A stretch of DNA of 64,000 nucleotides from Eubacteriales bacterium (GCA_034086705.1 JAXDZV010000030.1:82933-146932), one strand, 5' to 3'. Positions 2,776-33,540 are shown, numbered from the stretch's first letter. Notes: generated from the letters alone by a model not told the origin. Numbers and translations are program-made.

Positions 2776-3261
2776 TGTTTCTTTCCTTTTCAGCAGCCGA
2801 TATTTTTCCCCTTTGTAAATTGATTTACATTGATTGCAGCCAAACTACTTACCCCCCTTCTTGTGCTTGCAGACTCAATTTGCGATACGTGGAAGAACAG
2901 CCCGCCCGTCTGCAAAACGTATCCGTTATAAAATCGTGCCTTGAAATTATTTATCTCCCCTGCGGTCAGACGGAGCACGTGGGAAACATGTTCTGTGTTA
3001 CAAATCAATGGTATCACATAGTCACAACCCAGATGTATACAACAGACATTTCCGATGCTGCTCCATACCGATACTTTATGATCTCGGATGCGGCATAATA
3101 TAGACCACAAAAAGCCGGAATATGATAAAGTGACAGGCACTATAAAACATTGTTCCCCAAGCAACGAAAACCGCATTTTGCATATTGCTACATCAATTCT
3201 TTGCTTGGGTCACATAGCCATGTGATACATGCAAAATTTTTACCGTTTTTTCAAAAAAATC

Positions 3262-3290
3262 TTGACAGGAGCAAGTCAGCGTGCTAAAAT
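3262..3290 (+). promoter_or_regulatory. sigma-70-type promoter of T-box unit 1
   Basis: TTGACA at 3262-3267, a 17-nt spacer, then TAAAAT at 3285-3290. Confidence 0.6.
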
Positions 3291-3297
3291 GTAGAAA

Positions 3298-3564
3298 ATC
3301 GAACAAATAATAACGGCAATGACGAAGACGGTCGAAGCGTTTTGTTTGCAGAGAGTCGGCGGTAGGTGCAAGCCGATAGCGATCCCTTCACAGACCCATC
3401 CCTTCCGAGCCGGGAGGCTGAAGTACATACAGTAGGCTCTCTCCGTGAGGCTGCGTTAAAGCACAGGGCTTGTTAGAGCTCGATGAGCGGCGTTTTTTTA
3501 CGCAATTTTGAGTGGTACCGCGGGTTACACCCGTCTCAAAGAATTTTGAGACGGGTGTTTTTTA
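3298..3564 (+). promoter_or_regulatory. T-box leader 1 (tentative specifier AUC, Ile) with terminator
   Basis: Stem I elements: GA/K-turn TGACGAAG...CTTCCGAGCC, AG bulge AGAGAG and distal loop GGTAGGTGCAA. The T-box sequence TTGAGTGGTACCGCGGG lies at about 3508-3524. The terminator ACACCCGTCTCAAA/TTTGAGACGGGTGT plus a T-run lies at 3527-3564. The triplet just 5' of the basal CUUC helix is AUC (3398-3400). Confidence 0.85.
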
Positions 3565-3598
3565 TTTGTCCGACACAAAAAGAAGGAGATTCAGCAAA

Positions 3599-5875
3599 AT
3601 GAAGCAAGATGCATGGCAGCAGCAGGAAATTGCAAAGCGGATCAAAGAGATGCGCGAGGTAGCCGGCCTCTCCGTAGAAGCAGCAGCACAGGCATGTGAT
3701 ATGGCACCACTCGAGTATCTTGCCTATGAAAGCGGACAGACAGATTTTCCGTTTTCTTTTCTGCACAAATGTGCACACATGTTTGACATTTCCATCACAG
3801 ACCTTTTGCAGGGAGACAGCCCGCGTTTGTCATCCTACACCGTCACACGGAAAAACTGTGGGCAGTTAACCGCGCATGAAGATGGCATCACGATCAGTAA
3901 TCTGGCACCAAAATTTCGTGACAAGCTTGCAGAACCATACTGGGTTCGTTACGAATACCGGGAAGAAATGCAACATCGTCCGATTGAACTGGATACACAC
4001 TCCGGGCAGGAATTTGATTTGGTTTTGCATGGTTCGCTGCGTGTTTGTGTCGGTGGGCATGAAGAAATTTTGCAAGAAGGTGACAGCATCTTCTACAATT
4101 CTTCCACGCCGCACGGCATGATCGCAATCGGTGGAGAAGACTGTCTTTTCCTTGCTGTGGTACTACCGGGCGAAAAAACAGAAGAACCCATCGTTCGCCA
4201 GAGCGTAGTGTCTGCTGCACGTACGGAGGAACTGACAATCGGCCGTTTTGTCAGCTGCACAGAAGACGAAAACGGTACCCTCACAAAACTTACTTTTCAA
4301 AATGAAAATCGCTTTAACTTTGCCTTTGACATTGTCGACGCTATCGCAGACAAAACACCAGATAAACTTGCGTTGCTGCATCTGGACCGTGAAAAGCGAG
4401 AACAACATTTTAGCTTTTCCGATATGAAAAAGCGCTCTGCGCAAGCGGCAAACTATTTTAAATCTTTGGGGATTCGACCAGGAGACCGGGTCATGCTTGT
4501 GCTGCGACGGCAAGCACAGTTTTGGCCGGTCATTCTCGGATTACATAAGCTTGGCGCAGTCGCTATCCCAGCAACAGACCAGCTATTGGAAAAAGATTAT
4601 GCCTACCGCTTTGCCGCCGGAGAAATCGGTGCAATTGTATGTACAGCATTCGGTCATGCAGCTGCAGAAGTTGACAAAGCGCAAGATGCAACAGGGCACT
4701 CCCTTCAGAAAATATTAGTTGGGGAAGGAACTGACAGCGCCGTGCGCGCCGGCTGGCACGATTTCAACACAGAATCCATTTTGTTCAGCACGCATTACGC
4801 ACGTACCGAACAAACCCCCTGTGGCGATGCCCCAATGCTGATGTTTTTCACATCCGGCACCACCGGTTATCCGAAAATTGCCCAACATTCTTACAAATAT
4901 GCGCTGGGACACTATGTAACTGCAAAATACTGGCACGGTATCCGTCCAGGCGGTTTACACCTGACGGTCTCCGATACCGGATGGGGAAAAGCACTTTGGG
5001 GCAAGCTGTATGGGCAATGGATGTGTGAAGCAGCGGTCTTCGCGTATGACTTTGACCGTTTTTCTGCCGAAGAACTACTTCCGATGTTTGCAAAATACCA
5101 CATCACTACCTTCTGTGCTCCCCCCACCATCCTGCGGATGATGATTCGCGACAATTTAAAAGATTACGATTTTTCTTCTGTGCAGCGTGCAACCGTTGCC
5201 GGGGAAGCGCTGAATCCGGAAGTATTTCGTATTTTTCTGGAACAAACCGGGCTTTCTCTGGCGGAGGGGTTCGGGCAAACGGAAACAACATTGACAGTAG
5301 CCAATCTGGTTGGGCAACCCTGCAAAATCGGCTCTATGGGACGCCCCGTTCCCGGCTGGAGCCTTGCATTATTGGACTCGGATGGCAAGCCGGTTGCTGT
5401 TGGTGAAACAGGAGAAATCGTTGTAGATGTTTCAAACAGCCGTCCCTGCGGCCTGTTTTTAGGGTATTACAACGATTCGGAAGCAACAGAACGTGTCTGT
5501 CACGACGGATTCTATCACACGGGGGATCTTGCATGGCAAGATGAAGACGGCAATTTGTTTTATGTTGGACGCGCTGACGATGTGATTAAATCTTCAGGGT
5601 ACCGCATCGGGCCATTTGAAATTGAGAGCGTAATCATGGAATTACCTTATGTTTTAGAATGCGGTGTAACTGCAGCCCCCGACCCGCTGCGTGGGCAAGT
5701 TGTTAAGGCATGTGTGGTGTTAACTGCAGGCAGACAGCCATCGGAAGAATTGAAAAAGGAAATTCAAAACTACGTCAAGGCACGCACCGCTCCCTATAAA
5801 TATCCCCGGATTGTGGAATTTCGTTCAGAACTGCCAAAAACGATCAGCGGAAAAATCAAGCGAAATGTGCTATAA
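3599..5875 (+). CDS. XRE-HTH + cupin domain fused to AMP-forming (medium/short-chain type) acyl-CoA synthetase, paralog 1
   Basis: Start moved to the ATG at 3599 (RBS AAGGAGA), because the ORF-track start at 3512 lies inside the T-box terminator. The N-terminus has an HTH (IAKRIKEMREVAGLSVEAAAQAC...) and a cupin (HSGQEFDLVLHGSL...GDSIFYNSSTPHGM). The C-terminal ANL enzyme has FTSGTTGYPK, GFGQTETT, YHTGD and a terminal SGKIKR. Confidence 0.9.
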   Translation: MKQDAWQQQEIAKRIKEMREVAGLSVEAAAQACDMAPLEYLAYESGQTDFPFSFLHKCAHMFDISITDLLQGDSPRLSSYTVTRKNCGQLTAHEDGITISNLAPKFRDKLAEPYWVRYEYREEMQHRPIELDTHSGQEFDLVLHGSLRVCVGGHEEILQEGDSIFYNSSTPHGMIAIGGEDCLFLAVVLPGEKTEEPIVRQSVVSAARTEELTIGRFVSCTEDENGTLTKLTFQNENRFNFAFDIVDAIADKTPDKLALLHLDREKREQHFSFSDMKKRSAQAANYFKSLGIRPGDRVMLVLRRQAQFWPVILGLHKLGAVAIPATDQLLEKDYAYRFAAGEIGAIVCTAFGHAAAEVDKAQDATGHSLQKILVGEGTDSAVRAGWHDFNTESILFSTHYARTEQTPCGDAPMLMFFTSGTTGYPKIAQHSYKYALGHYVTAKYWHGIRPGGLHLTVSDTGWGKALWGKLYGQWMCEAAVFAYDFDRFSAEELLPMFAKYHITTFCAPPTILRMMIRDNLKDYDFSSVQRATVAGEALNPEVFRIFLEQTGLSLAEGFGQTETTLTVANLVGQPCKIGSMGRPVPGWSLALLDSDGKPVAVGETGEIVVDVSNSRPCGLFLGYYNDSEATERVCHDGFYHTGDLAWQDEDGNLFYVGRADDVIKSSGYRIGPFEIESVIMELPYVLECGVTAAPDPLRGQVVKACVVLTAGRQPSEELKKEIQNYVKARTAPYKYPRIVEFRSELPKTISGKIKRNVL

Positions 5876-5931
5876 GATGACGCTGTTGCCTGCGAAGATT
5901 TCTCCATTTTCTCTAAAAAGTAATTTTCCAG

Positions 5932-5960
5932 TTGACAATTTAAAATCTATGTGATATACT
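5932..5960 (+). promoter_or_regulatory. sigma-70-type promoter of T-box unit 2
   Basis: TTGACA at 5932-5937, a 17-nt spacer, then TATACT at 5955-5960. Confidence 0.6.
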
Positions 5961-5966
5961 CTTTGA

Positions 5967-6258
5967 AAACTACCATAAAGGCGTTGAAGGAGAGGGCGTT
6001 TGTCTTTTCACCCCTAACAGAGAGATGGCGGTTGGTGCGAGTCATCACGGCGGTGGCGGTAAATGCTGTAGCTTCTGAGCCGGGAGAAAGAAAGCGTTTT
6101 GCGCCGTAGAATCTCCCCGTGCAGGCCACGTAAGTTGCCAAGGGCTTGTTTGAGCCCGCTAAGAGGCGTCCACAAGGCGCAATTTGAGTGGTACCGCGGG
6201 TAATCGGATGTTCGATGCTCGTCTCAAAGAGAAATCTTTGGGGCGGGCTTTGTTTTTT
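5967..6258 (+). promoter_or_regulatory. T-box leader 2 (tentative specifier GUA, Val) with terminator
   Basis: Alignable with leader 1: GAAG...AGAGAG...GGTTGGTGCGA...GUAG-CUUC-UGAGCCGGGAG. The T-box sequence TTGAGTGGTACCGCGGG lies at about 6184-6200. A 14-bp G-U-containing terminator stem (6217-6230 with 6235-6248) is followed by TTTGTTTTTT. Confidence 0.85.
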
Positions 6259-6281
6259 GCCCCGGATAGAATAAGGGAGAG

Positions 6282-8576
6282 ATGGATATGTCAACAAAAA
6301 AACTCGATCAGCAAATCATGGAAATGGCGCACCGTATTCGCGAACTGCGTCAAATTGTCGGTTTATCGACAGAGCAGATGGCAAAATTTGCAGATATTTC
6401 ACACACGGAATACCTTGCATGTGAATCCGGCACACACGATTTGACATTTGCGTTTTTGTATCGTTGTGCACAGGCACTTGGCGTTGATGTCACGGATTTA
6501 ATCGAAGGAGCTAGCCCTCGCCTGCGTTCTTATACGGTCACACGCAGCGGAAAAGGGCAAAAAATCGAACAGGCACACGGTATGACATACTACAATCTTG
6601 CCGCCGCATTTCAGAACCGTATTGCGGAGCCTTTATACGTTGTTACGCAGTACAGTGAACAAGCACTTACAAAGCCAATTGCCCTGACAACGCACGAAGG
6701 GCAGGAATGCGATATTGTTCTGCGCGGACAACTGAAAGTGCAAATCGGTTCTCATACCGAAATTCTCGGTGAGGGAGACAGCGTGTACTATGACAGCAGC
6801 ACACCACACGGTATGGTTGCTCTGGGAGGACAAGATTGTCTTTTCTATGCAATCGTGCTCAATCCGCAGCCTGATGAATCCCCTGCACAGGTGTCAACTT
6901 CGAGCACGACTGCCCCGGCAATGCAACCAACACCTTTGCCACAACAGCAACAGGTTTGGCAAAAACACATCTGTGTCACCGAAGATACACACGGTACATT
7001 GACCTCCATTTCTTTTCCAAATGCCGACACATTTAACTTTGCTTTCGATATTGTAGACCGTTTGGGCACAGAAAAGCCTGACAAACTGGCAATGTTGCAC
7101 ATTGGTAAAGATCTTACAGAACGCCGGTTTACCTTTGCCGATATCAAACGAGCATCTGCGCAAACTGCAAACTATTTCCGATCCCTTGGCATTCAGCGCG
7201 GGGATCGTGTACTGCTGATTTTGAAACGGCACTATCAGTTTTGGTTTTCTGTGCTCGCTTTGCATAAACTTGGCGCTATTGCAATTCCCGCAACCAATCA
7301 ACTCAAGGAGCATGACATCACATACCGCCTGGAAAAAGCCGGCATCAGCGCCGTCATTTGTACGGCTGATGACGAAATCCCACAGCAAATGGAGCGTGCT
7401 GCAGCAGCGTATCCGTCTCTTTGCAAAATTCTGGTCGGTGCAAGCCGCGCAGGATGGCACAATTTTGACGCCGAATATCCTTTGTTCAGCGGGCGTTTTC
7501 CGCGACCTGCAGATGCTCCGTGCGGTGAAGACCCGATGCTGATGTATTTCACCTCCGGTACCACCGGCAATCCGAAAGTTGCTATGCATTGTTATAAATA
7601 TCCTTTAGGACATTTTGTGACGGCGCGCTATTGGCACAATGTCAATCCTGAGGGGCTACATTTGAGTATTGCCGATACCGGCTGGGCAAAAGCTGCATGG
7701 GGAAAGCTATATGGGCAATGGCTATGTGAGGCAGCCGTGTTTGTTTATGACTTTGACCGCTTTGACGCCTCGGTCATTTTGCCAATGTTTGCAAAGTACC
7801 ACATTACCACTTTTTGTGCCCCGCCAACGATTCTGCGTATGATGGTAAAACAAGACCTTTCCCGCTACGATCTGTCCAGTGTGCAGCATATGAGTACAGC
7901 AGGAGAAGCATTAAACCCGGAAGTCTTCCGACAATTTGAAGCTGCTACAGGGCTGCAAATTATGGAAGGCTTCGGACAGTCTGAAACCACAGTTGCACTT
8001 GCCAATCTCCGCGGTACAAAAATCCGGCCGGGGTCAATGGGCAAGCCGGTTGCGCTGTACGATATCGACCTTGTAGATGATGCCGGGAATTCTGTTCCCT
8101 GTGGCGAAGTAGGAGAAATTGTCATCCGAGTTGCAAACGGCGCGCCTTGTGGTTTGTTTCGCGGATATTACCGTGACCCGGAAAAAACCGCAGAATGCTG
8201 GCATGACGGATTGTACCACACAGGCGATACCGCATGGCGCGATGAAGAAGGATATTTCTGGTACGTCGGCAGAACAGATGATGTTATTAAATCCTCCGGC
8301 TATCGCATCGGTCCCTTCGAAATTGAAAACATCATCATGGAGCTTCCATACGTACTGGAATGCGGCGTAACCGCTGTGCCTGATGCACTGCGCGGACAAA
8401 TTGTGAAAGCCTGCATCGTATTAACAGCGGACCGCTCTCCCAGTGAAGCACTGGCAAAGGAAATACAAAATTATGTCAAGGCGCACACTGCGCCGTATAA
8501 ATATCCACGGCTGGTAGAATTCCGTTCGGAACTGCCGAAAACCGCCAGCGGAAAGATTATGAGAAATAAATTATGA
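6282..8576 (+). CDS. XRE-HTH + cupin domain fused to AMP-forming acyl-CoA synthetase, paralog 2
   Basis: Same architecture as 3599..5875, with long identical runs such as LPMFAKYHITTFCAPPTILRMM, DDVIKSSGYRIGPFEIE and ELPYVLECGVTA. A P/Q/S/T-rich linker separates the cupin from the enzyme. The start could be the ATG at 6288 rather than 6282, since RBS GGGAGAG abuts 6282. Confidence 0.9.
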   Translation: MDMSTKKLDQQIMEMAHRIRELRQIVGLSTEQMAKFADISHTEYLACESGTHDLTFAFLYRCAQALGVDVTDLIEGASPRLRSYTVTRSGKGQKIEQAHGMTYYNLAAAFQNRIAEPLYVVTQYSEQALTKPIALTTHEGQECDIVLRGQLKVQIGSHTEILGEGDSVYYDSSTPHGMVALGGQDCLFYAIVLNPQPDESPAQVSTSSTTAPAMQPTPLPQQQQVWQKHICVTEDTHGTLTSISFPNADTFNFAFDIVDRLGTEKPDKLAMLHIGKDLTERRFTFADIKRASAQTANYFRSLGIQRGDRVLLILKRHYQFWFSVLALHKLGAIAIPATNQLKEHDITYRLEKAGISAVICTADDEIPQQMERAAAAYPSLCKILVGASRAGWHNFDAEYPLFSGRFPRPADAPCGEDPMLMYFTSGTTGNPKVAMHCYKYPLGHFVTARYWHNVNPEGLHLSIADTGWAKAAWGKLYGQWLCEAAVFVYDFDRFDASVILPMFAKYHITTFCAPPTILRMMVKQDLSRYDLSSVQHMSTAGEALNPEVFRQFEAATGLQIMEGFGQSETTVALANLRGTKIRPGSMGKPVALYDIDLVDDAGNSVPCGEVGEIVIRVANGAPCGLFRGYYRDPEKTAECWHDGLYHTGDTAWRDEEGYFWYVGRTDDVIKSSGYRIGPFEIENIIMELPYVLECGVTAVPDALRGQIVKACIVLTADRSPSEALAKEIQNYVKAHTAPYKYPRLVEFRSELPKTASGKIMRNKL

Positions 8577-9271
8577 TTTCAACACAAAAACGTATCAGTC
8601 TTTTTTGCGGACATTACGGAAGCGGCAAAACCAACATCGCCATCAACTATGCATGTATGTTACGTGCAGCAGGGCTTGCGGTCAGCGTAGCAGATATGGA
8701 TATTGTCAATCCCTACTTCCGCACGAGCGATAGCCGTGAAATGCTCCAACGCGCCGGAATTGGGCTAGTCTGCTCCCCATATGCAGGATCAAATGTTGAT
8801 CTTGCTGCGCTTCCAAAAGAGCTATATGATTTGGTGCGTTGCCGTGACGTATATGCCGTGATGGACGTGGGCGGAGACGAACGCGGTGCGCTGGCATTGG
8901 GTCGTTATGTTCCGGAAATATTGGAAGAAGATAATTATGCAATGTACTTTGTTGTCAATTTTGCGCGCCCTTTAACACGCACCGCAGACCAGGCCTTCGA
9001 TATTCTGCGTGAAATTGAGCAAGCTGCGGGTATGCGCTGTACCGCGATTGTGCATAATACCAATCTTGCCACGCAAACTACGCCACAGACCTTGCTGCAC
9101 TACATCGATGCACTGCAACAGCTGCGCCAAAAAAGCGGCCTTCCTGTTGCCTTTTGGTCAGCTGAGCACACATTAATACCGGCCTTGGCCGATGCACTTG
9201 CGGCACATACGGACAAAGCATTATACCACGAGCTTTTTCCCCTGCATTTGCAGGCAAAAATAACGGATTGA
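8573..9271 (+). CDS. P-loop NTPase of unknown role (MinD/ParA/CooC-like size, Walker A GHYGSGKT)
   Basis: 232 aa, with an ATGA overlap onto the stop of the upstream synthetase. The Walker A motif sits near the N-terminus, and DMDIVNPYF and VMDVGGDERG are Walker B/switch-like segments. Confidence 0.7.
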   Translation: MISTQKRISLFCGHYGSGKTNIAINYACMLRAAGLAVSVADMDIVNPYFRTSDSREMLQRAGIGLVCSPYAGSNVDLAALPKELYDLVRCRDVYAVMDVGGDERGALALGRYVPEILEEDNYAMYFVVNFARPLTRTADQAFDILREIEQAAGMRCTAIVHNTNLATQTTPQTLLHYIDALQQLRQKSGLPVAFWSAEHTLIPALADALAAHTDKALYHELFPLHLQAKITD

Positions 9272-9504: not shown

Positions 9505-10584
9505 ATGAGCGAAAAAGTATTGATGAAAGGAAACGAAGCCATTGCAGAAGCTGCTATTATGGCAGGCTGCCGCCATTACTTCGGGTATCCAATTACACCA
9601 CAAACTGAAATCGCCGCATATATGGCAAAACGTATGCCGCAGATCGGCGGGTGTTTTTTACAAGCAGAGAGCGAAATTGCAGCTATCAACATGGTATACG
9701 GCGTTTCCTCAGCGGGGTATCGCGTTATGACCTCTTCTTCCAGCCCTGGGATTGCATTGAAAAGCGAAGGCCTATCCTATCTGGCCGGTGCTGACCTGCC
9801 AGCACTGGTGGTCAATGTACAGCGCGGCGGACCGGGCCTTGGAGGAATTCAGCCCTCGCAATCAGATTATTTTCAGGCAACCAAAGCCGGCGGACACGGT
9901 GATTTTCGAATGATCGTACTTGCTCCTGCTTCCGTTCAGGAAATGGCGAATTTAACTTTGTGCGGCTTTGCACTGGCAGATCAATATCGTATGACAGCAA
10001 TGATTCTCGCCGATGGTACAATGGGCCAAATGATGGAGCCGGTGAGCTTCGAGCAACCCCCTCTGCAGGAAGTGGAAAAACCCTGGGCAGTCCGTGGTAC
10101 TGAAAATATGCGTCCGCATAATATCATCAATTCTCTGTATCTGGTGCCGGAAGAGCTGGAACGAAAAAATGTGGAACGCTTTGCGCGCTATGCGGAAATT
10201 GAAAAGAAGGAAGCTCGCTGTGAAGAATACCACGTAGAAGACGCAGACATCATCGTCGTTGGGTTCGGCATTGCCGCACGTGTTGCCAAAAGCGCCGTAG
10301 ACGCGGCGCGGGCTCAGGGAATCCGCGTTGGGTTGATTCGCCCGATCACGCTTTGGCCATTTCCCAAAGAGGCGCTGTACCGTGCCGCTACACACGCTAA
10401 ACGTTTCATTTCAGTTGAGCTTTCTATGGGACAAATGGTGGAAGATATTTCACTTGCTATTCACTGCAAGGCGCCCGTGGACCTTTGCTTCCGTACGGGG
10501 GGGATGATTCCGTCTCCTGAGCAAGTTCTCAACGCCATTACAGATGCAAAAACAAAAATTGACACAGAAAGGACGCCTTGCTGA
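9505..10584 (+). CDS. vorB: 2-oxoacid:ferredoxin oxidoreductase alpha subunit (VorB-like, 3-methyl-2-oxobutanoate type)
   Basis: 359 aa. The N-terminus MKGNEAIAEAAIMAGCRHYFGYPITPQTEI is typical of the short POR/VOR/KOR alpha subunits, and the gene sits in a four-subunit operon. Confidence 0.85.
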   Translation: MSEKVLMKGNEAIAEAAIMAGCRHYFGYPITPQTEIAAYMAKRMPQIGGCFLQAESEIAAINMVYGVSSAGYRVMTSSSSPGIALKSEGLSYLAGADLPALVVNVQRGGPGLGGIQPSQSDYFQATKAGGHGDFRMIVLAPASVQEMANLTLCGFALADQYRMTAMILADGTMGQMMEPVSFEQPPLQEVEKPWAVRGTENMRPHNIINSLYLVPEELERKNVERFARYAEIEKKEARCEEYHVEDADIIVVGFGIAARVAKSAVDAARAQGIRVGLIRPITLWPFPKEALYRAATHAKRFISVELSMGQMVEDISLAIHCKAPVDLCFRTGGMIPSPEQVLNAITDAKTKIDTERTPC

Positions 10585-10600
10585 AGGCCGGAACATATGT

Positions 10601-11350
10601 ATGATCGTATTTGAAAAACCGAAGGTGTTAACCGACAAGCCGCTGCATTATTGCCCCGGCTGTACACATGGAATTGTTCATCGTCTGGTTGCGCAGGCGA
10701 TTGAAGAGCTTTCCATCGAAGGAAAAACAATTGGCGTTGTGCCGGTTGGCTGTTCTGTTATGGCATATGACTATTTCAAAACCGATATGGTAGAGGCCTC
10801 GCATGGGCGGGCGCCTGCCGTTGCAACCGGTCTGCGCCGTGCGTTACCCGACCGTGTGATTTTTACATACCAAGGCGACGGCGATCTCGCCTCCATCGGC
10901 ACTGCAGAAACAGTACATGCCGCCGCACGCAATGAGAATATCACCGTTATTTTTATTAATAACGCCATCTACGGTATGACAGGCGGCCAAATGGCTCCGA
11001 CTTCCCTTCCCGGCCAGGTAACGCAAACTTCCCCCTATGGCAGAGATGTCAAACAATGTGGTTATCCTGTGAAAATCTGCGAAATGCTGGCGCAACTGGA
11101 GGGCCCGGCTTATCTGGAGCGTGTTGCCGTTAACAACGTCAAACACGTGTTGGCAGCAAAAAAAGCGATTCGCCGTGCATTTGAAAACCAACTTGCAGGT
11201 AAAGGCTTTTCGCTGATCGAAGTGCTTTCCTCCTGCCCCACGAACTGGGGAATGACACCGGAAAAAGCCTTGGACTGGATAGAAGAAAAAATGATTCCGT
11301 ATTATCCGCTCGGCGTGTTTAAGGACAGAGACAAGGAGGCAGTTCAATGA
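10601..11350 (+). CDS. 2-oxoacid:ferredoxin oxidoreductase beta subunit (TPP-binding)
   Basis: HYCPGCTHG cluster-ligand motif and TPP motif GDGDLASIG...NNAIYGMTGGQ. Start trimmed to the ATG at 10601, after the alpha-subunit stop at 10584. Confidence 0.85.
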   Translation: MIVFEKPKVLTDKPLHYCPGCTHGIVHRLVAQAIEELSIEGKTIGVVPVGCSVMAYDYFKTDMVEASHGRAPAVATGLRRALPDRVIFTYQGDGDLASIGTAETVHAAARNENITVIFINNAIYGMTGGQMAPTSLPGQVTQTSPYGRDVKQCGYPVKICEMLAQLEGPAYLERVAVNNVKHVLAAKKAIRRAFENQLAGKGFSLIEVLSSCPTNWGMTPEKALDWIEEKMIPYYPLGVFKDRDKEAVQ

Positions 11351-11886
11351 GCACTACCAAGATTCTGATTGCCGGATTCGGTGGGCAAGGCGTACTGTTT
11401 GCCGGCAAATATCTCGCATATCAGGGATTGCTGGAAGGCAGACAGCTTTCCTGGCTCCCTTCATACGGGCCCGAAATGCGCGGCGGAACTGCAAATTGCA
11501 GTGTCATTCTTTCTGACGAACCAGTCGGCTCACCGATTGTCACAGAACCGGACGTTCTGATCGTCATGAACCTCCCCTCCTATGATAAATATGAAAGCAG
11601 TGTAGTTTCCGGCGGCCTTATCCTGCTGGACAGCTCGTTGATTGACCGACCCACCGCGCGTTCTGATGTGCGCACCGTCCGTGTACCAGCCACAGCAATG
11701 GCCCGCGAACAGGGCATTCCAACACTTGCCAATATGATCTTGCTCGGCCAGTTTTTTGCTTGCAGCGGCGCCGCTGATTTTGCCAATACCGATGCGGTAT
11801 TGAAAAAAGTAATCTCACAAAAACATATGGATCTCTTTGCGCTGAATCGCAAAGCGCTGGAGCTCGGATATCATTATCAGGCGTAA
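11347..11886 (+). CDS. 2-oxoacid:ferredoxin oxidoreductase gamma subunit
   Basis: 179 aa with an ATGA overlap onto the beta subunit. [14 protein letters not shown] is the typical gamma-subunit N-terminus. Confidence 0.85.
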
Positions 11887-11899
11887 AGGAGAAAACGAC

Positions 11900-12976
11900 A
11901 TGGAAATTCGCTATATTGCCCCCACAGAGCTTCGTGCGCATCCGGATGAAAGTGCGCTTGGCTTCGGCAAATATTTTACCGACCATATGCTCACCGTAGA
12001 GTATGATCGAGAAAATGGTTGGCACGACGCCTGCATTGCGCCATTCGGTCCAATCGCACTGCATCCGGCCTCAACCGTTCTGCATTACGGCTCTGAAGTT
12101 TTTGAAGGGTTGAAAGCTTATCGCGCGGCAGACGGTTCTGTCCGCCTATTTCGCCCCATTGAAAATGTACGACGCATGAACCAATCAGCAGAGCGCTTGG
12201 GGCTGCCACAAATGGACGAACAGGAAATGCTCTCTCTCATCCTTGAGATTGTTCGCAAAGATGAAGATTGGGTACCGCATTTACCAGGTACCTCCCTGTA
12301 CATCCGCCCGTTTTTATTTGGGAATGATGCAAATCTTGGTGTCCATTCCATTCATCGTGCCACCTTTGTCATCATTCTCTCACCGGTCGGCGCCTACTAT
12401 GCAGAGGGGATCAATCCTGTGAAAATCCGCATTGAAACAGAAGATGTCCGTGCCGTGCGCGGCGGCACCGGCTATGCAAAGTGCGGAGGAAACTATGCTG
12501 CTTCCGTGCGCGCCGGAGAAAAAGCAGAAAAAGAGGGCTTTACCCAGGTATTATGGCTGGACGGCGTTCATCGCAAGTATATTGAAGAGGTGGGCGCAAT
12601 GAACGTTATGTTTAAAATCAACGGCACCATCATCACCCCGCAGCTCACCGGATCCGTTTTGCCCGGAATCACACGAAAATCCTGTATTACGCTGTTGCAC
12701 GATTGGGGGTATTCCGTCGAAGAACGACTGCTCAGCGCCGAAGAGTTGTTTGCTGCAGCGGAAAGCGGTGCTTTGGAAGAAGCATTCGGCACTGGGACGG
12801 CTGCCGTTGTCTCTCCCATCGGTCTTTTGCGCATGAATGAACGCTCATTCACCGTCAACCACGGCAAAATTGGGCCGCTAACGCAGCGTTTATATGACAC
12901 TCTGACAGGAATCCAATGGGGTACATGCCCCGATCCGCACAATTGGATCTGCCCGCTGCGGAATACACAAGCATAA
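11900..12976 (+). CDS. ilvE: branched-chain amino acid aminotransferase (fold type IV, long form)
   Basis: 358 aa with FGKYFTDHM, YGSEVFEGLKAY, LYIRPF and GGTGYAKCGGNYAAS, which are characteristic of BCAT. Confidence 0.9.
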   Translation: MEIRYIAPTELRAHPDESALGFGKYFTDHMLTVEYDRENGWHDACIAPFGPIALHPASTVLHYGSEVFEGLKAYRAADGSVRLFRPIENVRRMNQSAERLGLPQMDEQEMLSLILEIVRKDEDWVPHLPGTSLYIRPFLFGNDANLGVHSIHRATFVIILSPVGAYYAEGINPVKIRIETEDVRAVRGGTGYAKCGGNYAASVRAGEKAEKEGFTQVLWLDGVHRKYIEEVGAMNVMFKINGTIITPQLTGSVLPGITRKSCITLLHDWGYSVEERLLSAEELFAAAESGALEEAFGTGTAAVVSPIGLLRMNERSFTVNHGKIGPLTQRLYDTLTGIQWGTCPDPHNWICPLRNTQA

Positions 12977-13121
12977 TCATTCTTCGCAAAATGGGTGATA
13001 AATAAGCAAGGCGATCTTTTTGCTTTGCGTCTTTCCCTTCACACCTTGCCCATAGCATGCTCCAACACCACATGCCAAAATTTTCAATATGCATCCTGTA
13101 TTTTCCTTTATATTACAAAGG

Positions 13122-13160
13122 GCAGGCCGATCTGCTATTAAGCAGACCGGCCTGTCTTTT
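13122..13160 (+). terminator. intrinsic terminator at the end of the ilvE operon
   Basis: GCAGGCCGATCTGC ... GCAGACCGGCCTG hairpin (one A/C mismatch) followed by TCTTTTGCTG, between convergent gene ends. Confidence 0.55.
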
Positions 13161-13199
13161 GCTGCTACATTATTTTCCTTTTTCAAAGGAATGTTGCAC

Positions 13200-15503
13200 T
13201 CAGGAGTCACTCTGCGTTTCTGCACGGAGGTGCTCCAGCATTTCTTTTGCATCTACAAGCAGCTCCCTTGCCGCCTCCGCTGATGCCGCATCCGCAATTA
13301 AACGCAGCGCAGCCCGCCGCTCCGGTCGCAACAGAACCCAACCGCTGTCCCGACGAATCCGCAATACATCCGGTATATGCCATACTTCGTCTGGATGTGA
13401 GGGGGTGTGCAATTTTCCAAGTGCCCGCATCAAAGCAGCCTTTTCTGCCACAGGCATCAAAACAGTCATACGTCGTCTGACATGCTGCGGCTGTGCCGCA
13501 CATAGCGCAGACAGCGAAGTGCCTGTCTGTGAAAGGAGTGTCACCAGTGTCGCAGCCCCAAAAATCGGGTTGGAAATCGGTAAAACAGATGCATATAATT
13601 TGCGCGCTGCAATCGACGGATCATCCGGCCCCGGACAATGCGTAAATCGCTCAACAGTAAATCCCGCCTCTTCTCCCAACGACTCGAAAAAAGCAGGCGC
13701 TGCCGCAGGCAGCCCGACACGTGTTAGCTGCCATGTTCCAGCACAATAACGCAGCAGCGTACCGGCAATTGCCCATGTGTCAAACTCTTTTCCGTTTTCA
13801 AACGCGATCAACTCTCCCCATTCGTTCAAGCACAGTTGCAAAGCGGCTTCCCGATGCGGTAGCTTTCCGTATGCCGCAAAATAGGGGCCAAGTATGGCTT
13901 TGGCTGCAACACCGGCAAAGCAGAACGGATACGTTTGTGTGGTTGTACTGAAAAAAGGCAATAGAGCACGCCGCAGCAAATATCGCACATCTGTCGATGG
14001 CAAAACCGTACACGGCTCTGCAACACTGCCCCCTTGCGAGAGCCCTTGCTCTAAAAGGCGCTCCGTTGCGCGCACAGGGTACAATCCGTTTTCATCTAAG
14101 AGTACCGCTGTACAGCGTCTGCCGTCAAACCGGATAAACAAAGTCAACGCACAGCCGTAATGCAATGCAGCAAACGAGCTTTCCGGGCGTGAGAGCACAC
14201 CGAAATCAACCGTTTTACCGCCGGCAGCCGCACATGCGGCTGCTGCCAACGACACAGTCGCTGCGCTGACAGCATGCCCGTCACTGCTGAAGCCCACCGG
14301 CCCGGGCAATCCTGCCGCTGCAAACGCAAGCGCCGCTCCGAATCGCGCACAAAACACCGTATCCGGCTTTTCCTGCGCAAAGAGTTCTATCTCACTGTGG
14401 GAAAATCGATCCTGCACAACACGAAACCCGTCAAATACCGCGTCTGTTTCTTCCTGTGTTGCAGCCGGGGCAGACATTGTCTGCGCGGCACATGTTGTCC
14501 CCGCAGGTAAGTGCAGCCCTCGCTGCAGACAAATCCCGGGGGCAACCGTCACACCGCTGCCAAGCACGCATCCGGGCGTCACAAAGGCACGTGCACCGAT
14601 CCAAGCTCCCTGCGCAATCATAGCACCCTCAACATGCGCATGCGCACCAACTGTAACACTATCCAGCAAAATACTTTGCTGCAACTGTGCCGTTGGATCC
14701 AGGCGGCAACCGTCTGAAATAATACAACCATGTTGTAAGACACCCTCCCGCGGCTGAATCCCCTCAATCTCGCCACGTGCCAGCTGAAAATTGCAGGCAA
14801 AATACGCATCCAATGTTCCGATATCACACCAGTACCCGCGCATCTCTTCGCCACGTAGCAAAATACCGTCTCGCAATGCCGCAGGAAAAATATCTTTACC
14901 AAAATCACTCGGTCTGTCTTGCGGAATGCGCGCAATAAACCGTGGTGTGAGCAAATACATACCGGTGTTGACCGTATCCGGTGCTGCACTGAAGGCGCTC
15001 GGCTTTTCGGCAAAAGCACGTATACTGCCATCCGGTGCACACAGAACAACACCAAGCGAACTGACGTCTGCTGTGTGGCTTAGGAGCAAGGTTGCCTCTG
15101 CTCCCCCCGCGCGATGCCGCGCCAATGCCGCAGAAAGGTCAAAATTGCACAGCGCGTCTGCACTGATAACCAAAACTTCCCGCTGCGAAAAATCACCTAC
15201 CGACATTAACGCCGCACGCACACCGCCTGCTGTCCCCAGAGGTGTCTGCTCGACAGCATACCGTAGACGGATCCCCTCTGCCTGCTCCCCATAATACTGA
15301 CGAATTTGCTCCGCACGATAACATAAACTGACAATCGCCTCCGTGTATCCATGCCGGGCGAGCAACCTTAAAACATGCGTCATCGCCGGCTCTGCAGCAA
15401 TTGGCACCAAAGGCTTTGGAAGTGTATCTGTCAATGGGCGAAGCCGCCTGCCTTCTCCTCCCGCCATGATGATCGGAATCGGGCGATTTATTGTTTCGTT
15501 CAT
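13200..15503 (-). CDS. sugar-phosphate nucleotidyltransferase (NTP-transferase + left-handed beta-helix) with a long PGM/PMM-like C-terminal region
   Basis: IIMAGGEGRRLRPLTDTLPKPLVPI is the nucleotidyltransferase signature and is followed by hexapeptide-like repeats. The C-terminal ~400 aa resembles a phosphohexomutase scaffold, but I see no SHNP-type active-site loop. Start set at the ATG at 15503 (AAAGGAA about 11 nt upstream); the ORF track starts at 15542. Confidence 0.6.
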   Translation of the reverse strand: MNETINRPIPIIMAGGEGRRLRPLTDTLPKPLVPIAAEPAMTHVLRLLARHGYTEAIVSLCYRAEQIRQYYGEQAEGIRLRYAVEQTPLGTAGGVRAALMSVGDFSQREVLVISADALCNFDLSAALARHRAGGAEATLLLSHTADVSSLGVVLCAPDGSIRAFAEKPSAFSAAPDTVNTGMYLLTPRFIARIPQDRPSDFGKDIFPAALRDGILLRGEEMRGYWCDIGTLDAYFACNFQLARGEIEGIQPREGVLQHGCIISDGCRLDPTAQLQQSILLDSVTVGAHAHVEGAMIAQGAWIGARAFVTPGCVLGSGVTVAPGICLQRGLHLPAGTTCAAQTMSAPAATQEETDAVFDGFRVVQDRFSHSEIELFAQEKPDTVFCARFGAALAFAAAGLPGPVGFSSDGHAVSAATVSLAAAACAAAGGKTVDFGVLSRPESSFAALHYGCALTLFIRFDGRRCTAVLLDENGLYPVRATERLLEQGLSQGGSVAEPCTVLPSTDVRYLLRRALLPFFSTTTQTYPFCFAGVAAKAILGPYFAAYGKLPHREAALQLCLNEWGELIAFENGKEFDTWAIAGTLLRYCAGTWQLTRVGLPAAAPAFFESLGEEAGFTVERFTHCPGPDDPSIAARKLYASVLPISNPIFGAATLVTLLSQTGTSLSALCAAQPQHVRRRMTVLMPVAEKAALMRALGKLHTPSHPDEVWHIPDVLRIRRDSGWVLLRPERRAALRLIADAASAEAARELLVDAKEMLEHLRAETQSDS

Positions 15504-17718: not shown

Positions 17719-18007
17719 ATAAAATCAATAAACAAATGCGCAGATGGAATTACGTGTTTCCACAAACATGCTCCAGAGAGGCAGCGGTAGGTGCGAGCTG
17801 CAGCATGGGGGAGAAACGGTCTCATTCCGGAGCAGGATCTCGGAAGGGCGCTACGGTAAGTGTTGCCATAGTATGAGATCCCGGAGGCCCCGTTACCATG
17901 GCTGTAGGATTGAAAGATCCTGAATAAGTGACCGTCTATGGACGGTAAGCAGGGTGGTACCGCGAATTTGTTTCGTCCCTGAGGTCTTTGACCTCAGGGA
18001 CTTTTTT
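17719..18007 (+). promoter_or_regulatory. T-box leader 3 (specifier CUC, Leu) with terminator
   Basis: AGAGAG bulge, distal loop GGTAGGTGCGA, and specifier context GAAACGGU-CUC-A-UUCC-GGAGCA pairing with a 5' GGAA. The T-box sequence AGGGTGGTACCGCG lies at 17951-17964. The terminator GTCCCTGAGGT/ACCTCAGGGAC plus TTTTTT lies at 17975-18007. Confidence 0.85.
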
Positions 18008-18037
18008 GATTACAAAAGAAAAATAAGGAGTAAAGAA

Positions 18038-19444
18038 ATGAAAAACATGCAGATATGCCAGATACAGGATGAAACGCTGTGTTGCCAGCAGCAGACACAA
18101 AAGGCCCTTTCTTTCCGTGCCCGTATGGAAATTATCGGAAAACTGATTGCTGCCGGCGTGAATCTTATTGCATTGCCGATACCTGAAAATGAAAAAGCAG
18201 ATGCCCTTTTGTTAGATACGGTGGCACCGCTTGGCGAAAATGTTTGTTATGTCATTTCCGTTTCCTCCGTAGCACAAGCCCAACGCGCAGCTGCCGTGCT
18301 TATGCACGCAGCCCACGCCCGGCTATGTGTAGAACTTCCTCTTTCTGCCATCGGTATGGAGTATTCTTTACACAAAAAAGAAAAAGACATGATCGGTTTT
18401 GTCACAGATTTAATCTCTTCCTGCCGTACTCTGTGCAATCAAGTCAGCTTTTGCGCCGCAGACGCCTTTCGGGCAGATGTTACTTTTCTGAAAAGTGCTG
18501 TACAGGCTGCCGTATCTGCAGGTGCTGATACTGTAATTCTCAAAGACAATGCCGGGATCGCTCTGCCGTGGACAACGCAAACGCTCTTCCAATCTGTTGC
18601 TCAGCAGTTGCCCGCATCTGTCTGTCTCGGCGCCGCTTTTTCAAATACTGCTTTCATGGCTTGCGCCAACAGCGCGTGTGCTGTCCGCAGCGGCGCTGTG
18701 ATACTGCTCAGCGCCATTGGCAGCAATACCTTACCGGATACTGCAGCGCTTGGGTACACTATGCAGAGTCTTTCGCATACAGAAAAATATACAACTGCTC
18801 TCGTTACAACAGAGCTTTCTCGCCTGTGCGATGCGGTGCGCGCACAGCTTTGCGGGGTAGAACGTACCACGCAGCAACAACGTACCCCCGAACAGTTTCG
18901 TTTGACCAAAGATGCCAGCGCCACAGAAGTCGCACAGGCAGCTCGCACGCTCGGATATGATCTTTGCGCAGAAGACGCCGATCGCCTGTATGAAGCATTT
19001 CGCCGCGTTTCGGAGAAAAAAACGGTTGACAGCCGCGAACTGGACGCATTGATCGCATCGGAAACAATGCAGGTGCGTCCCACCTATACATTGGAGAAAT
19101 ATCTTGTAAACGCAGGCAACGTGATGACTCCGGCCGCGCAAATCACATTGCGTCGCGGCGAAGACCGGTTACAGGGAATTTCGATGGGAGACGGCCCGAT
19201 TGATGCAGCATTTCTAACCATTGAACAAATAATTGGATGCCATTTCGAATTAGATGCATTCGAAATTCAAGCGGTAACGGAGGGCCGCGGCGCAATGGGG
19301 TCCGCCGTTGTCAGACTCCGGGCAGATGGAAAACTATATAGCGGTATGGGCAGTTCAACGGACATCATCGGCGCATCTATCCGCGCTTACTTAAACGCCA
19401 TCAACAAAATCGTGTATGATGAAATGCAGTCACAAACACTCTAA
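18038..19444 (+). CDS. 2-isopropylmalate synthase (LeuA)-like protein with degenerate active site and intact LeuA-dimer/regulatory C-terminal domain
   Basis: Start at the ATG at 18038 (RBS AAGGAG), because the ORF-track start lies in the T-box terminator. The N-terminal motif reads DETLCCQQQ where LeuA/CimA have DTTLRDGEQ. The HxH metal site is replaced by AAFSNTAF. The C-terminus GDGPIDAAF...AVTEGRGAMGSAVVRLRADGKLYSGMGSSTDIIGASIRAYLNAINK matches the LeuA allosteric domain. Confidence 0.75.
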   Translation: MKNMQICQIQDETLCCQQQTQKALSFRARMEIIGKLIAAGVNLIALPIPENEKADALLLDTVAPLGENVCYVISVSSVAQAQRAAAVLMHAAHARLCVELPLSAIGMEYSLHKKEKDMIGFVTDLISSCRTLCNQVSFCAADAFRADVTFLKSAVQAAVSAGADTVILKDNAGIALPWTTQTLFQSVAQQLPASVCLGAAFSNTAFMACANSACAVRSGAVILLSAIGSNTLPDTAALGYTMQSLSHTEKYTTALVTTELSRLCDAVRAQLCGVERTTQQQRTPEQFRLTKDASATEVAQAARTLGYDLCAEDADRLYEAFRRVSEKKTVDSRELDALIASETMQVRPTYTLEKYLVNAGNVMTPAAQITLRRGEDRLQGISMGDGPIDAAFLTIEQIIGCHFELDAFEIQAVTEGRGAMGSAVVRLRADGKLYSGMGSSTDIIGASIRAYLNAINKIVYDEMQSQTL

Positions 19445-32024: not shown

Positions 32025-33239
32025 CTACTGCAACACAACTTTCTTGAAATTCTTCTTACCACGACGCAAAACAACACCCTCTTGCAGCGCCACGGATGAA
32101 AAAGACGCATGGATATCCGCAATTTTTTCTCCGTCCGCACTGACACCCCCCTGTTCCACCGCACGCCGTGCCTCCGAACGCGATGCACAAAGGCCCGCGG
32201 CACAAAGCAACGTCAAAATATCTGCCTGATTATTTGTAAGAATGTCCGTGCCAATAAAAATTTGGGGAGCATCTGCACCGCCACTGAAAACGGAACGTGC
32301 TGCCGCACGTGCCTGCTCTGCCTGTGCCGTTCCATGTACCAAAGCAGTAAGCTCATATGCCAGAATTTCTTTTTTCTCATTGATACGGGTGTCCGGCCAA
32401 TTTTCCATTTGTGCAATGTCCGAAAGCGGCAAAAACGTCAGCATGCGCAAGCATTTCATCACATCTGTATCTGCAACATTGCGCCAATACTGATAAAACT
32501 CAAACGGTGTGGTTTTTTTCGGGTCAAGCCATACCGCCCCCTTTTGCGTTTTGCCCATTTTTTTACCCTCTGAATTCAGCAGAAGCGTGATCGTCATCGC
32601 GTGTGCATCTTTGCCAAGCTTACGGCGTATGAGCTCCGTGCCGCCAAGCATATTGCTCCATTGATCGTCACCGCCAAATTGCAGATTACAGCCGTATTTT
32701 TCATACAGTTCCAGAAAATCATAGCTCTGCATCAGCATATAATTAAATTCCAAGAAAGACAGCCCTTTTTCCAAACGCTGTTTATAGCATTCCGCACGTA
32801 GCATCTGATTCACAGAGAAACATGCTCCCACTTCGCGTAAAAAGGCAACATAATTCAGCTGCATCAGCCAGTCTGCGTTGTTCACAAGCAACGCTTTTCC
32901 TTCGGAAAAATCAATAAATCTGCTCATCTGTTCCCTAAAGCAGGCAACGTTATGTGCAATGTTCTCAACCGTCAGCATAGAACGCATATCGGTCCGTCCG
33001 GAAGGATCTCCCACCATAGCGGTACCGCCGCCGAGCAAAGCAATCGGGCGGTTGCCCGCCATTTGTAGCCGCTTCATCAGGCAAAGTGCCATAAAATGTC
33101 CAACATGCAGACTGTCTGCCGTCGGGTCAAATCCGATATAAAACACCGCACGCCCCGTATTGATCAATTCTGCAACTTTTTCTTCATTGGTAACTTGCGC
33201 AATCAAGCCGCGCGCTTTCAGCTCTTCGTATACTGTCAT
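32025..33239 (-). CDS. tyrS: tyrosine--tRNA ligase
   Basis: 404 aa from the ATG at 33239 (RBS AGGAAGGAA). It has a HIGH-type motif (DSLHVGH), KMGKT (KMSKS variant) and a C-terminal S4-like domain. The upstream part of the track ORF is the T-box leader. Confidence 0.95.
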   Translation of the reverse strand: MTVYEELKARGLIAQVTNEEKVAELINTGRAVFYIGFDPTADSLHVGHFMALCLMKRLQMAGNRPIALLGGGTAMVGDPSGRTDMRSMLTVENIAHNVACFREQMSRFIDFSEGKALLVNNADWLMQLNYVAFLREVGACFSVNQMLRAECYKQRLEKGLSFLEFNYMLMQSYDFLELYEKYGCNLQFGGDDQWSNMLGGTELIRRKLGKDAHAMTITLLLNSEGKKMGKTQKGAVWLDPKKTTPFEFYQYWRNVADTDVMKCLRMLTFLPLSDIAQMENWPDTRINEKKEILAYELTALVHGTAQAEQARAAARSVFSGGADAPQIFIGTDILTNNQADILTLLCAAGLCASRSEARRAVEQGGVSADGEKIADIHASFSSVALQEGVVLRRGKKNFKKVVLQ

Positions 33240-33290
33240 TGTTCCGTTCCTTCCTAACAAAACTTTTATTGAAGAATTTTTTCTCCCGAT

Positions 33291-33535
33291 AAAAAACGCC
33301 CTCTGCCACACGCAGAGGGCGTTACAAACGCGGTACCACCTCAGTTCGTGTTCGCCAACACGAACACCTCTTCTCCCGATATAACGGTCGAACCGGCGCA
33401 GCCTACACAAAAAACTTTTTCTCTTCGGTGCGCAGCTCCCACGGTGTATTTCCAAAGTGCTCTGCCTCCGCCTTGCATCTTCCGGCGTCTTTCTGCACAC
33501 ATAACAGCTTTGTACTTCTCCGCGATCTTTGCTTT
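33291..33535 (-). promoter_or_regulatory. T-box leader 4 (specifier UAC, Tyr) with terminator
   Basis: Read on the minus strand: GGTGGTACCGCG (33329-33340), the terminator AACGCCCTCTGCGTGTGGCAGAGGGCGTTTTTT (33291-33323), and the specifier context GGAAA-UAC-A (UAC = 33446-33448). Confidence 0.9.
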
Positions 33536-33540
33536 TTTAC

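Follow-up and report, generated by a model that had tools for sequence, protein, structure and literature searches.

We analysed a 64,000-nucleotide (nt) stretch of DNA from a Eubacteriales bacterium (GCA_034086705.1 JAXDZV010000030.1:82933-146932; hereafter the window) and found near its start two T-box riboswitch leaders in series, each followed by a gene for an acyl-coenzyme A (CoA) synthetase. Leader 1 carries the isoleucine (Ile) codon AUC and leader 2 the valine (Val) codon GUA in the specifier position, and the second synthetase gene is followed by genes for a 2-oxoacid:ferredoxin oxidoreductase (VOR) and the branched-chain amino acid aminotransferase IlvE. We propose, with a probability of about 0.8, that this locus encodes a T-box-gated salvage route in which branched-chain acids are converted to acyl-CoAs, reductively carboxylated and transaminated to Ile or Val. 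The features that carry this proposal are, in window coordinates:

3262-3290 (+): promoter P1, sigma-70, TTGACA-17-TAAAAT with TG extension, 11/12 matches
3310-3564 (+): leader 1, Ile-class T-box riboswitch, RF00230 90.3 bits, E 1.2e-19, model positions 1-219
3324-3327 (+): GAAG, 5′ strand of the leader 1 basal Stem I helix above the kink-turn (K-turn), pairing with 3402-3405
3398-3400 (+): specifier AUC (Ile) of leader 1, then C 3401; covariance-model codon columns 92-94
3513-3522 (+): T-box core UGGUACCGCG of leader 1 with UGGU bulge, from the covariance-model alignment
3527-3564 (+): intrinsic terminator 1, hairpin 3527-3558, 14-bp stem and U tract; z-score -4.63 against shuffles
3599-5875 (+): ligase 1, 758 amino acids (aa), HTH_XRE, cupin and AMP (adenosine monophosphate)-forming acyl-CoA synthetase; predicted 2-methylbutyrate-CoA ligase
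5932-5960 (+): promoter P2, sigma-70, TTGACA-17-TATACT with TG extension, 11/12 matches
5975-6258 (+): leader 2, Val-class T-box riboswitch, RF00230 70.2 bits, E 1.8e-14, model positions 1-219
6068-6070 (+): specifier GUA (Val) of leader 2, then G 6071; covariance-model codon columns 92-94
6072-6075 (+): CUUC of the leader 2 basal helix, pairing with 5989-5992
6189-6198 (+): T-box core UGGUACCGCG of leader 2 with UGGU bulge, from the covariance-model alignment
6217-6258 (+): intrinsic terminator 2, hairpin 6217-6248, 14-bp stem and U-rich tract; z-score -2.96 against shuffles
6282-8576 (+): ligase 2, 764 aa (762 aa from a start at 6288), same architecture as ligase 1; predicted isobutyrate-CoA ligase

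A permissive covariance-model search over 3200-6400 aligned all canonical T-box parts in both leaders, namely the K-turn (GA motif), the specifier loop, the AGAGA bulge and Stems II and III. In T-boxes, the AG bulge and the distal loop of Stem I (AGAGA ... GGUNGGUG) dock on the tRNA elbow. Here, the GGUNGGUG distal loop was aligned by the model in leaders 1 and 2, and the distal Stem I elements AGAGAG plus GGTAGGTGC / GGTTGGTGC are present in both. Furthermore, an alignment of the two leaders over about 255 nt shows 162 identical positions (roughly 64%), with long common blocks that include AGAGAG, GGTNGGTGC, CTTCYGAGCCGGGAG and TTTGAGTGGTACCGCGGGT. This bears out the original prediction, made from the sequence alone, that the leaders can be aligned through Stem I, Stem II and the T-box. 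Both score below the Rfam gathering cut-off for RF00230 of 93 bits, at which only 17732-17983 (+) and 33312-33538 (-) are reported as T-boxes in the window, and they were therefore overlooked by standard annotation. Orthologous leaders of both classes, taken from the 80 best-matching loci of a genome-collection scan (labelled L001 and onwards; contigs from metagenome-assembled genomes, MAGs), exceed the cut-off, with 103 and 100.6 bits in L002, 99.8 in L024 and 98.2 in L030. The value of 103 bits belongs to the Val-class orthologue of L002, and the Ile-class orthologues reach 98-101 bits. The T-box assignment of both window leaders is therefore safe.

The UGGU bulge is found in 150 of 150 leaders from the window and the related loci. 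It fits the A73 discriminator of tRNA-Ile, tRNA-Val and the leucine (Leu) acceptor tRNA-Leu, whose 3′ end ACCA would pair with the bulge. Since UGGU occurs in every leader and suits all three tRNAs, the specifier would be the sole discriminating contact. In both leaders, the 3′ half of the antiterminator doubles as the 5′ arm of the terminator. Leader 1 would respond to tRNA-Ile and leader 2 to tRNA-Val.

Around the specifier, leader 1 reads ...CCC-AUC-C-CUUC(3402-3405)-CGAGCC and leader 2 reads ...GCU-GUA-G-CUUC(6072-6075)-UGAGCC. The original prediction had assigned AUC-C and GUA-G to the specifier position by eye. The structure-aware alignment could have placed another triplet in the specifier loop, and it placed AUC and GUA in codon columns 92-94, with the following base in post-codon column 95. 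The same placement was obtained in 10 further Ile/Val leaders with printed covariance-model alignments. Outside of these, rule-based specifier calls were used; the rule mis-called L013_12482, L028_2614 and L053_12549, which by eye read GUA-A, AUC-C and GUC-G, respectively, and the regular expression for the core missed L063, whose core is TGGTTCC. In leader 1, the covariance-model alignment shows a shortened 5′ side of the specifier loop.

Single-sequence minimum free energy folds of Stem I are no more stable than shuffles (z-scores of +1.05 for leader 1 and +0.15 for leader 2) and hence uninformative. Therefore, covariation was used for Stem I. RNAalifold, applied to 44 Stem I sequences of the three leader classes in an unfitted MAFFT alignment, recovers the helices flanking the K-turn, with compensatory changes in 11 of the 14 predicted pairs. 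The compensatory pairs include GAAG:CUUC, GGAG:CUCC, GGGG:CCCC, GAAA:UUUC and AGGG:CCCU, and lie in both the outer helix (columns 1-3:103-105) and the basal helix (columns 10-13:96-99). For the GAAG:CUUC basal helix of leader 1, such changes were found at all four pairs across the loci. In total, 96.8% of the Stem I pair counts were paired, compared with 25-44% when the 3′ partner was slid by 1-3 columns, and the covariation score was 0.64 compared with 0.25 in shuffles. The 100% pairing of the 4-bp basal helix is partly by construction, because the leader extraction rule demanded it; the outer helix is free of this rule and shows GC 23, UA 11 and AU 5. The position of the triplet, separated by a single base from the basal helix on its 3′ side, is thus fixed by the covarying helices around the K-turn.

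The base after a T-box specifier is usually a purine, a feature that is highly conserved but not defining. Leader 2 has G 6071 at this position and leader 1 has C 3401. The original prediction had already raised this non-purine as a caveat, and it proved to be real: of the 73 Ile-class leaders, 38 have A after AUC and 33 have C, while G and U occur once each. A cytosine after AUC is therefore evidently tolerated, as it is present in about 45% of the orthologous leaders. Among the related leaders, the specifier changes only synonymously (GUA/GUC and CUC/CUG, with AUC invariant), whereas the bases on either side vary. All 73 Ile-class leaders have AUC, and 37 and 7 Val-class leaders have GUA and GUC, respectively, but these counts are circular, since the classes were defined by codon. 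The leaders were therefore recounted by the clade of the downstream gene. Leaders of ligase clade A then carry AUC in 68 cases and GUA in one (L076), with one caller error; those of clade B carry GUA in 26 and GUC in 6, again with one caller error. In front of the LeuA-like genes, 30 of 30 leaders present Leu codons (CUC 18, CUG 12). The specifier thus covaries with the synthetase clade in orthologous loci, AUC with clade A and GUA or GUC with clade B, which the original prediction had proposed as a check of its reading.

The related loci stem from gut and rumen MAGs of Oscillospirales, Acutalibacteraceae and Ruminococcus-like bacteria, and their ligases show 60-67% identity to ligase 1. Most share the order [T Ile] lig1 [T Val] lig2 P-loop vor ilvE [T Leu] leuA-like lig3, where T denotes a T-box; ilvE lies ahead of vor in L012 and L073. 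Neighbour-joining trees, drawn without support values, were built for ligases and leaders. The ligase tree contains a 40-leaf clade with 32 of the 33 Val-associated ligases and zero Ile-associated ones, and a 77-leaf group with 65 Ile-associated ligases and zero Val-associated ones. The exception is L076, whose two ligase genes pair together. In this locus (about 9971-14900), the ligase genes have identical stretches of at least 130 nt, which indicates gene conversion between the paralogs, and the leaders keep AUC and GUA. In the leader tree, the Ile and Val leaders form one clade with the Leu leaders outside; the mean Ile-Val identity is 0.59 (0.62 within a genome), compared with 0.50-0.52 to the Leu leaders. 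Since the Ile and Val leaders are mutual closest relatives, and the ligases likewise, leader and gene were duplicated as a unit. The concordance of the two trees agrees with the duplication and specifier re-coding put forward in the original prediction. The arrangement is ancient and widely conserved and not local to this genome, the duplication and re-coding having preceded the divergence of these lineages.

Ligases 1 and 2 are 58% identical from end to end and share one domain architecture (Pfam HTH_XRE, Cupin_2, AMP-binding and AMP-binding_C), in keeping with their description as paralogs in the original prediction. The nearest PDB match of the catalytic part is, by a wide margin, 3ETC (MacsMa of M. 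acetivorans, E 9e-178). The top NCBIfam model for both is MbcS, with 404 and 427 bits against an equivalog cut-off of 850, so that the ligases count as relatives and not as equivalogs. MacsMa favours 2-methylbutyrate as substrate, and its Trp259 was reported to be critical for acyl substrate binding (PMC10455477). MbcS of S. aureus is selective for 2-methylbutyrate and isobutyrate, with a Michaelis constant (Km) below 10 µM for both, and poor on isovalerate (PMC10026030). From these relatives together with the T-box specifiers, we infer 2-methylbutyrate as the acid of ligase 1 and isobutyrate as that of ligase 2.

Nine ligase positions discriminate strictly between the clades, and one of them is catalytic: the residue after DTGW is Gly463 in 100% of the Ile clade and Ala469 in 100% of the Val clade, and MacsMa also possesses a glycine here. 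The second-best catalytic discriminator is L466 in the Ile clade, with M or A in the Val clade. The numbering offset of 3ETC was set at +23 by six published residues (Y460, K461, R490, K519, Y525 and Y527), which places MacsMa Trp259 at W467 of ligase 1, one residue after 466 and four after 463. The exchange of Gly for Ala by the pocket tryptophan would fit a pocket one methyl group smaller, as for the C4 acid isobutyrate compared with the C5 acid 2-methylbutyrate, but this is suggestive only.

A promoter with at least 10/12 matches lies within 75 nt in 65 of 73 orthologous Ile-class leaders and occurs in 38 of 44 Val-class loci; the apparently conserved bases in the P2 spacer are mostly the extended -10. 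A perfect palindrome, TCACAT-AGCC-ATGTGA, is located at 3210-3225, about 40 nt upstream of the P1 -35 box. No terminator-like site was found between the stop codon of gene 1 (5875) and P2. Across the related loci, a terminator-like hairpin upstream of the Val-class leader was found in only 1 of 44, and in several loci the -35 box of promoter 2 starts at most 15 nt after the ligase 1 stop codon. Without a terminator after ligase 1, transcripts from P1 therefore run into leader 2. In addition, no plus-strand promoter with at least 10/12 matches was found in the window from the ligase 2 start to the end of ilvE. It follows from this arrangement of sequence elements that ligase 1 would be governed by the Ile switch only, whereas the shared genes, from ligase 2 and the P-loop gene to VOR and IlvE, would need read-through at the Val switch from either promoter. 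The missing terminator and the nested two-tRNA logic of the original prediction thus hold at the level of the wiring.

The genes after ligase 2 are translationally coupled or tightly spaced, and a third T-box unit lies further downstream:

8573-9271 (+): P-loop protein, 232 aa, weakly CbiA/ParA-like, no family at threshold; overlaps the ligase 2 stop codon
9268-9492 (+): 2x[4Fe-4S] ferredoxin-like open reading frame, two CxxCxxCxxxCP motifs in the translation
9505-11886 (+): VOR genes, by Pfam and NCBIfam
9505-10584 (+): VorB-type alpha subunit, NF005507 VorB 534.8 bits against a cut-off of 399
10544-11350 (+): thiamine pyrophosphate-binding beta subunit of VOR, correct Pfam domains, below equivalog cut-off
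11347-11886 (+): gamma subunit of VOR, correct Pfam domains, below equivalog cut-off
11900-12976 (+): IlvE, branched-chain amino acid aminotransferase, PRK13357 461.9 bits against a cut-off of 307
17732-17983 (+): third T-box, Leu specifier CUC, RF00230 109.2 bits
18011-21969 (+): Leu module, LeuA-like gene and ligase 3
18011-19444 (+): divergent LeuA-like protein, 211 bits against an NCBIfam cut-off of 532
19468-21969 (+): ligase 3, 833 aa, fusion of a xylose-isomerase-like triosephosphate isomerase (TIM) barrel and an AMP-forming ligase

In the related loci, the P-loop gene always lies between the last ligase and the VOR genes, and its product may be a maturation or accessory factor of VOR. 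The ferredoxin-like reading frame, with its two cluster motifs, is a probable VOR delta subunit. In most related loci, the Leu module accompanies the Ile/Val operon in synteny, either after ilvE or divergently upstream of the operon, and it may represent the isovalerate/Leu arm. Elsewhere in the window, a Tyr T-box (specifier UAC, 103 bits) lies at 33312-33538 (-) upstream of tyrS (32025-33500 (-)), and no tRNA genes were found within the 64 kb.

T-boxes turn genes on when the cognate tRNA is uncharged; therefore, synthesis rather than degradation of Ile and Val fits the induction expected here. In the proposed mechanism, uncharged tRNA-Ile would read AUC in leader 1 and uncharged tRNA-Val would read GUA in leader 2. 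The NCCA end of the uncharged tRNA would pair with the UGGU bulge and stabilise the antiterminator, so that the terminator is read through. Ligase 1 would then activate 2-methylbutyrate and ligase 2 isobutyrate, VOR would reductively carboxylate the acyl-CoAs to 2-keto acids, and IlvE would transaminate these to Ile and Val. The third unit, with its Leu T-box, LeuA-like gene and different ligase, would cover Leu. The Ile and Val units themselves would have arisen by an ancient duplication of leader and gene followed by re-coding of the specifier. Rumen organisms are known to convert 2-methylbutyrate to Ile and isovalerate to Leu by reductive carboxylation (PMC2812497, PMC7356843). In this operon, VOR would run in the reductive direction.

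Several observations weigh against this salvage reading. At the level of the RNA, both leaders miss the Rfam gathering score, the base after AUC in leader 1 is not a purine, the pairing of the basal helix is in part a product of the extraction rule, and the trees are neighbour-joining trees without support values. The specifier placement also has an exception in the second leader of L001, the closest relative, where GCA+U occupies these columns. In this leader (12325-12573), the Ala codon GCA adjoins a 6-nt tandem repeat, GCAUCU GCAUCU; ligase 2 is gone from L001, and the T-box still stands directly before P-loop-vor-ilvE. The GCA could be due to decay, re-coding or an assembly error. At the level of the wiring, a shortage of Ile on its own would leave VOR and IlvE uninduced, an awkward outcome for a route that salvages Ile. 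Possible ways round are some basal read-through, second copies of the genes elsewhere, or a normal state in which Ile and Val are limiting together. The arrangement is not universal either. Single-ligase operons lie wholly under an Ile T-box in L018, L022, L031, L033, L047 and others, ligase 2 has its own promoter and no T-box in L043, L046, L057 and L063, and L065 has no T-box at all. The four loci L043, L046, L057 and L063 form a subclade that has lost the Val T-box and kept a short 5′ untranslated region (UTR) before ligase 2. Finally, at the level of the enzymes, very few positions of the catalytic domains are clade-specific, and a split in specificity is not required, because MbcS takes both 2-methylbutyrate and isobutyrate.

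These enzyme-level points lead to an alternative that we consider unlikely but worth keeping in view, in which the subfunctionalisation is regulatory only: both ligases would be broad, accepting 2-methylbutyrate and isobutyrate, and limitation for Ile or Val would each induce one of them. The use of both acids by MbcS with a Km below 10 µM is consistent with it, as are the many relatives that live with one ligase under an Ile T-box and the distribution of discriminating positions, of which, at an overlap of at most 0.1, 3 fall in the catalytic domain and 26 in the N-terminal module. In contrast, each clade is 100% fixed for its own residue, Gly or Ala, beside the pocket tryptophan, with the glycine shared by the 2-methylbutyrate-preferring MacsMa, and the clades stay separate across many genomes, with homogenisation seen only in L076. 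Less likely still, the ligases could feed branched acyl-CoA primers to membrane fatty acid synthesis while VOR and IlvE work oxidatively. Such a role is documented for MbcS in S. aureus, the nearest named family (PMC10026030, PMC11167679), and Ile scarcity would also deplete the Ile-derived anteiso primers. However, under T-box logic it would be senseless to induce an aminotransferase and VOR in order to degrade the limiting amino acid, and the presence of IlvE and a VorB-type enzyme on the same transcript agrees with the known route of reductive carboxylation, although both roles could coexist.

The remaining alternatives concern the leaders. That one or both are decaying relics that no longer switch appears highly improbable. 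Their 90.3 and 70.2 bits under a gathering score of 93, together with relatives that lack the Val T-box, could be read in this way, but all structural elements are present, the helices covary, UGGU is invariant, the terminators are intact and the specifiers change only synonymously across about 120 leaders. Together, these features bear the signature of purifying selection. A mis-assigned specifier in leader 1, with either a shifted UCN (Ser) abutting the helix or CAU (His) as the true codon, seems more improbable yet. The non-purine after AUC speaks for it, as do the moderate posterior probabilities in this part of the covariance-model alignment, and since UCN encodes Ser for any N, the conservation of AUC alone cannot exclude this register. 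On the other hand, the Val-class leaders share the geometry, and the shifted register would give UAG, UAA or UCG there, whereas GUA and GUC both encode Val. NAU is not a conserved codon, as C, U and G all occur before AUC, and the gene context is branched-chain amino acid metabolism. The registers UCN and NAU were accordingly rejected on Val-class homology and the variable base before AUC, respectively. We retain the T-box-gated salvage of 2-methylbutyrate and isobutyrate as the preferred reading.

The N-terminal HTH-cupin module of the ligases (3599-4243 in ligase 1 and 6282-6950 in ligase 2; 215-223 aa) deserves separate consideration. At an overlap of at most 0.1, 26 clade-discriminating positions lie in residues 1-215 and 3 in residues 216-758, the former including H56, K57, E94, I97, I99 and Y114 of ligase 1, which correspond to Y, R, A, M, Y and L in ligase 2. 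The module is PuuR-like (1Y9Q at E 1e-4, with weak PuuR matches), and its probable role is to recognise a ligand or DNA in a paralog-specific manner. No consistent operator for the helix-turn-helix (HTH) domain was found among the loci; TCCGGA-N4-TCCGGA occurs in the 5′ UTR of ligase 2 in only two of 81 loci, L046 and L057. A (C)AATTGAAT motif is located about 5-25 nt before Stem I, close to where transcription is predicted to start (e.g., in L026, L027, L035, L068 and L073); similar motifs occur in 13-25 of the 73 Ile-class leaders (18-34%) and are almost absent from the Val and Leu classes. Conceivably, two sensing layers operate, the T-box gate and the fused PuuR-like HTH-cupin module as a second, paralog-specific sensor, but we regard this idea as speculative and rather doubtful. 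Its ligand could be the acid, the amino acid or the acyl-adenylate, and the effect could be exerted either on DNA or by allostery, so that the ligases would behave in the manner of a BirA-type trigger enzyme. A paralog-specific sensor would explain why 26 of the 29 sharp discriminators lie in the N-terminal 215 aa. If true, HTH-cupin sensors and serial Ile-then-Val T-boxes would make up a multi-input logic circuit for isoacid salvage.

Compared with the RF00230 T-boxes of ileS, valS and the ilv-leu operon in Bacillota, the two leaders have the same Stems I, II and III, UGGN bulge and competing antiterminator and terminator, and the specifier likewise matches the amino acid of the regulated pathway. 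In contrast, the genes regulated here encode acyl-CoA synthetases that act on carboxylic acids. Tandem T-boxes that share one specificity occur, for example, in trp operons and thrZ. They share with this locus two attenuators in series on one transcript; here, the attenuators would address different tRNAs, and a gene and a second promoter lie between them, an arrangement that gives gene-specific rather than sharpened logic. Acyl-CoA synthetases were not found among the T-box regulons in two surveys (PMC2494555, PMC3766115). T-box duplication accompanied by altered specificity is a recognised evolutionary process according to Vitreschak et al. (2008), as cited in PMC3766115, and a Tyr-to-Phe change has been described (PMC2494555). 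The documented cases share leader duplication and specifier re-coding with the present one, whereas here the enzyme gene was duplicated in tandem along with its leader, specifier class and enzyme clade covary over dozens of genomes, and the two switches stay in series on one transcription unit. As for the enzymes, the catalytic domains are closest to the solved and named branched short-chain acyl-CoA synthetases MacsMa and MbcS, but the window proteins add about 215 aa of N-terminal HTH_XRE and cupin and lie in an amino acid salvage operon instead of a lipid context. Neither T-box control of acyl-CoA ligase/VOR/IlvE operons nor HTH-cupin-ligase fusions were found in the searched literature, in which subscription journals are thinly covered, so that this absence is no proof. 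Taken together, the leaders are new members of the T-box family on an unlisted gene set, in a serial arrangement and with two specificities.

The locus offers a clean natural case of co-duplication of a riboswitch and an enzyme, in which a change of triplet re-coded the switch and the difference between the enzyme pockets may amount to essentially one methyl group (Gly versus Ala). Furthermore, T-box specifiers serve as built-in labels of amino acid specificity for generically annotated enzymes. In this window, they mark the products of three "AMP-binding protein" genes as the enzymes through which 2-methylbutyrate (Ile), isobutyrate (Val) and possibly isovalerate (Leu) probably enter. The reductive carboxylation of isoacids to amino acids has been known in rumen microbiology since the 1960s, while to our knowledge the activating enzymes and their regulation are poorly defined in Oscillospirales and Ruminococcus-like bacteria. 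The locus bears on isoacid feed supplements and on the gut cross-feeding of branched-chain fatty acids and amino acids.

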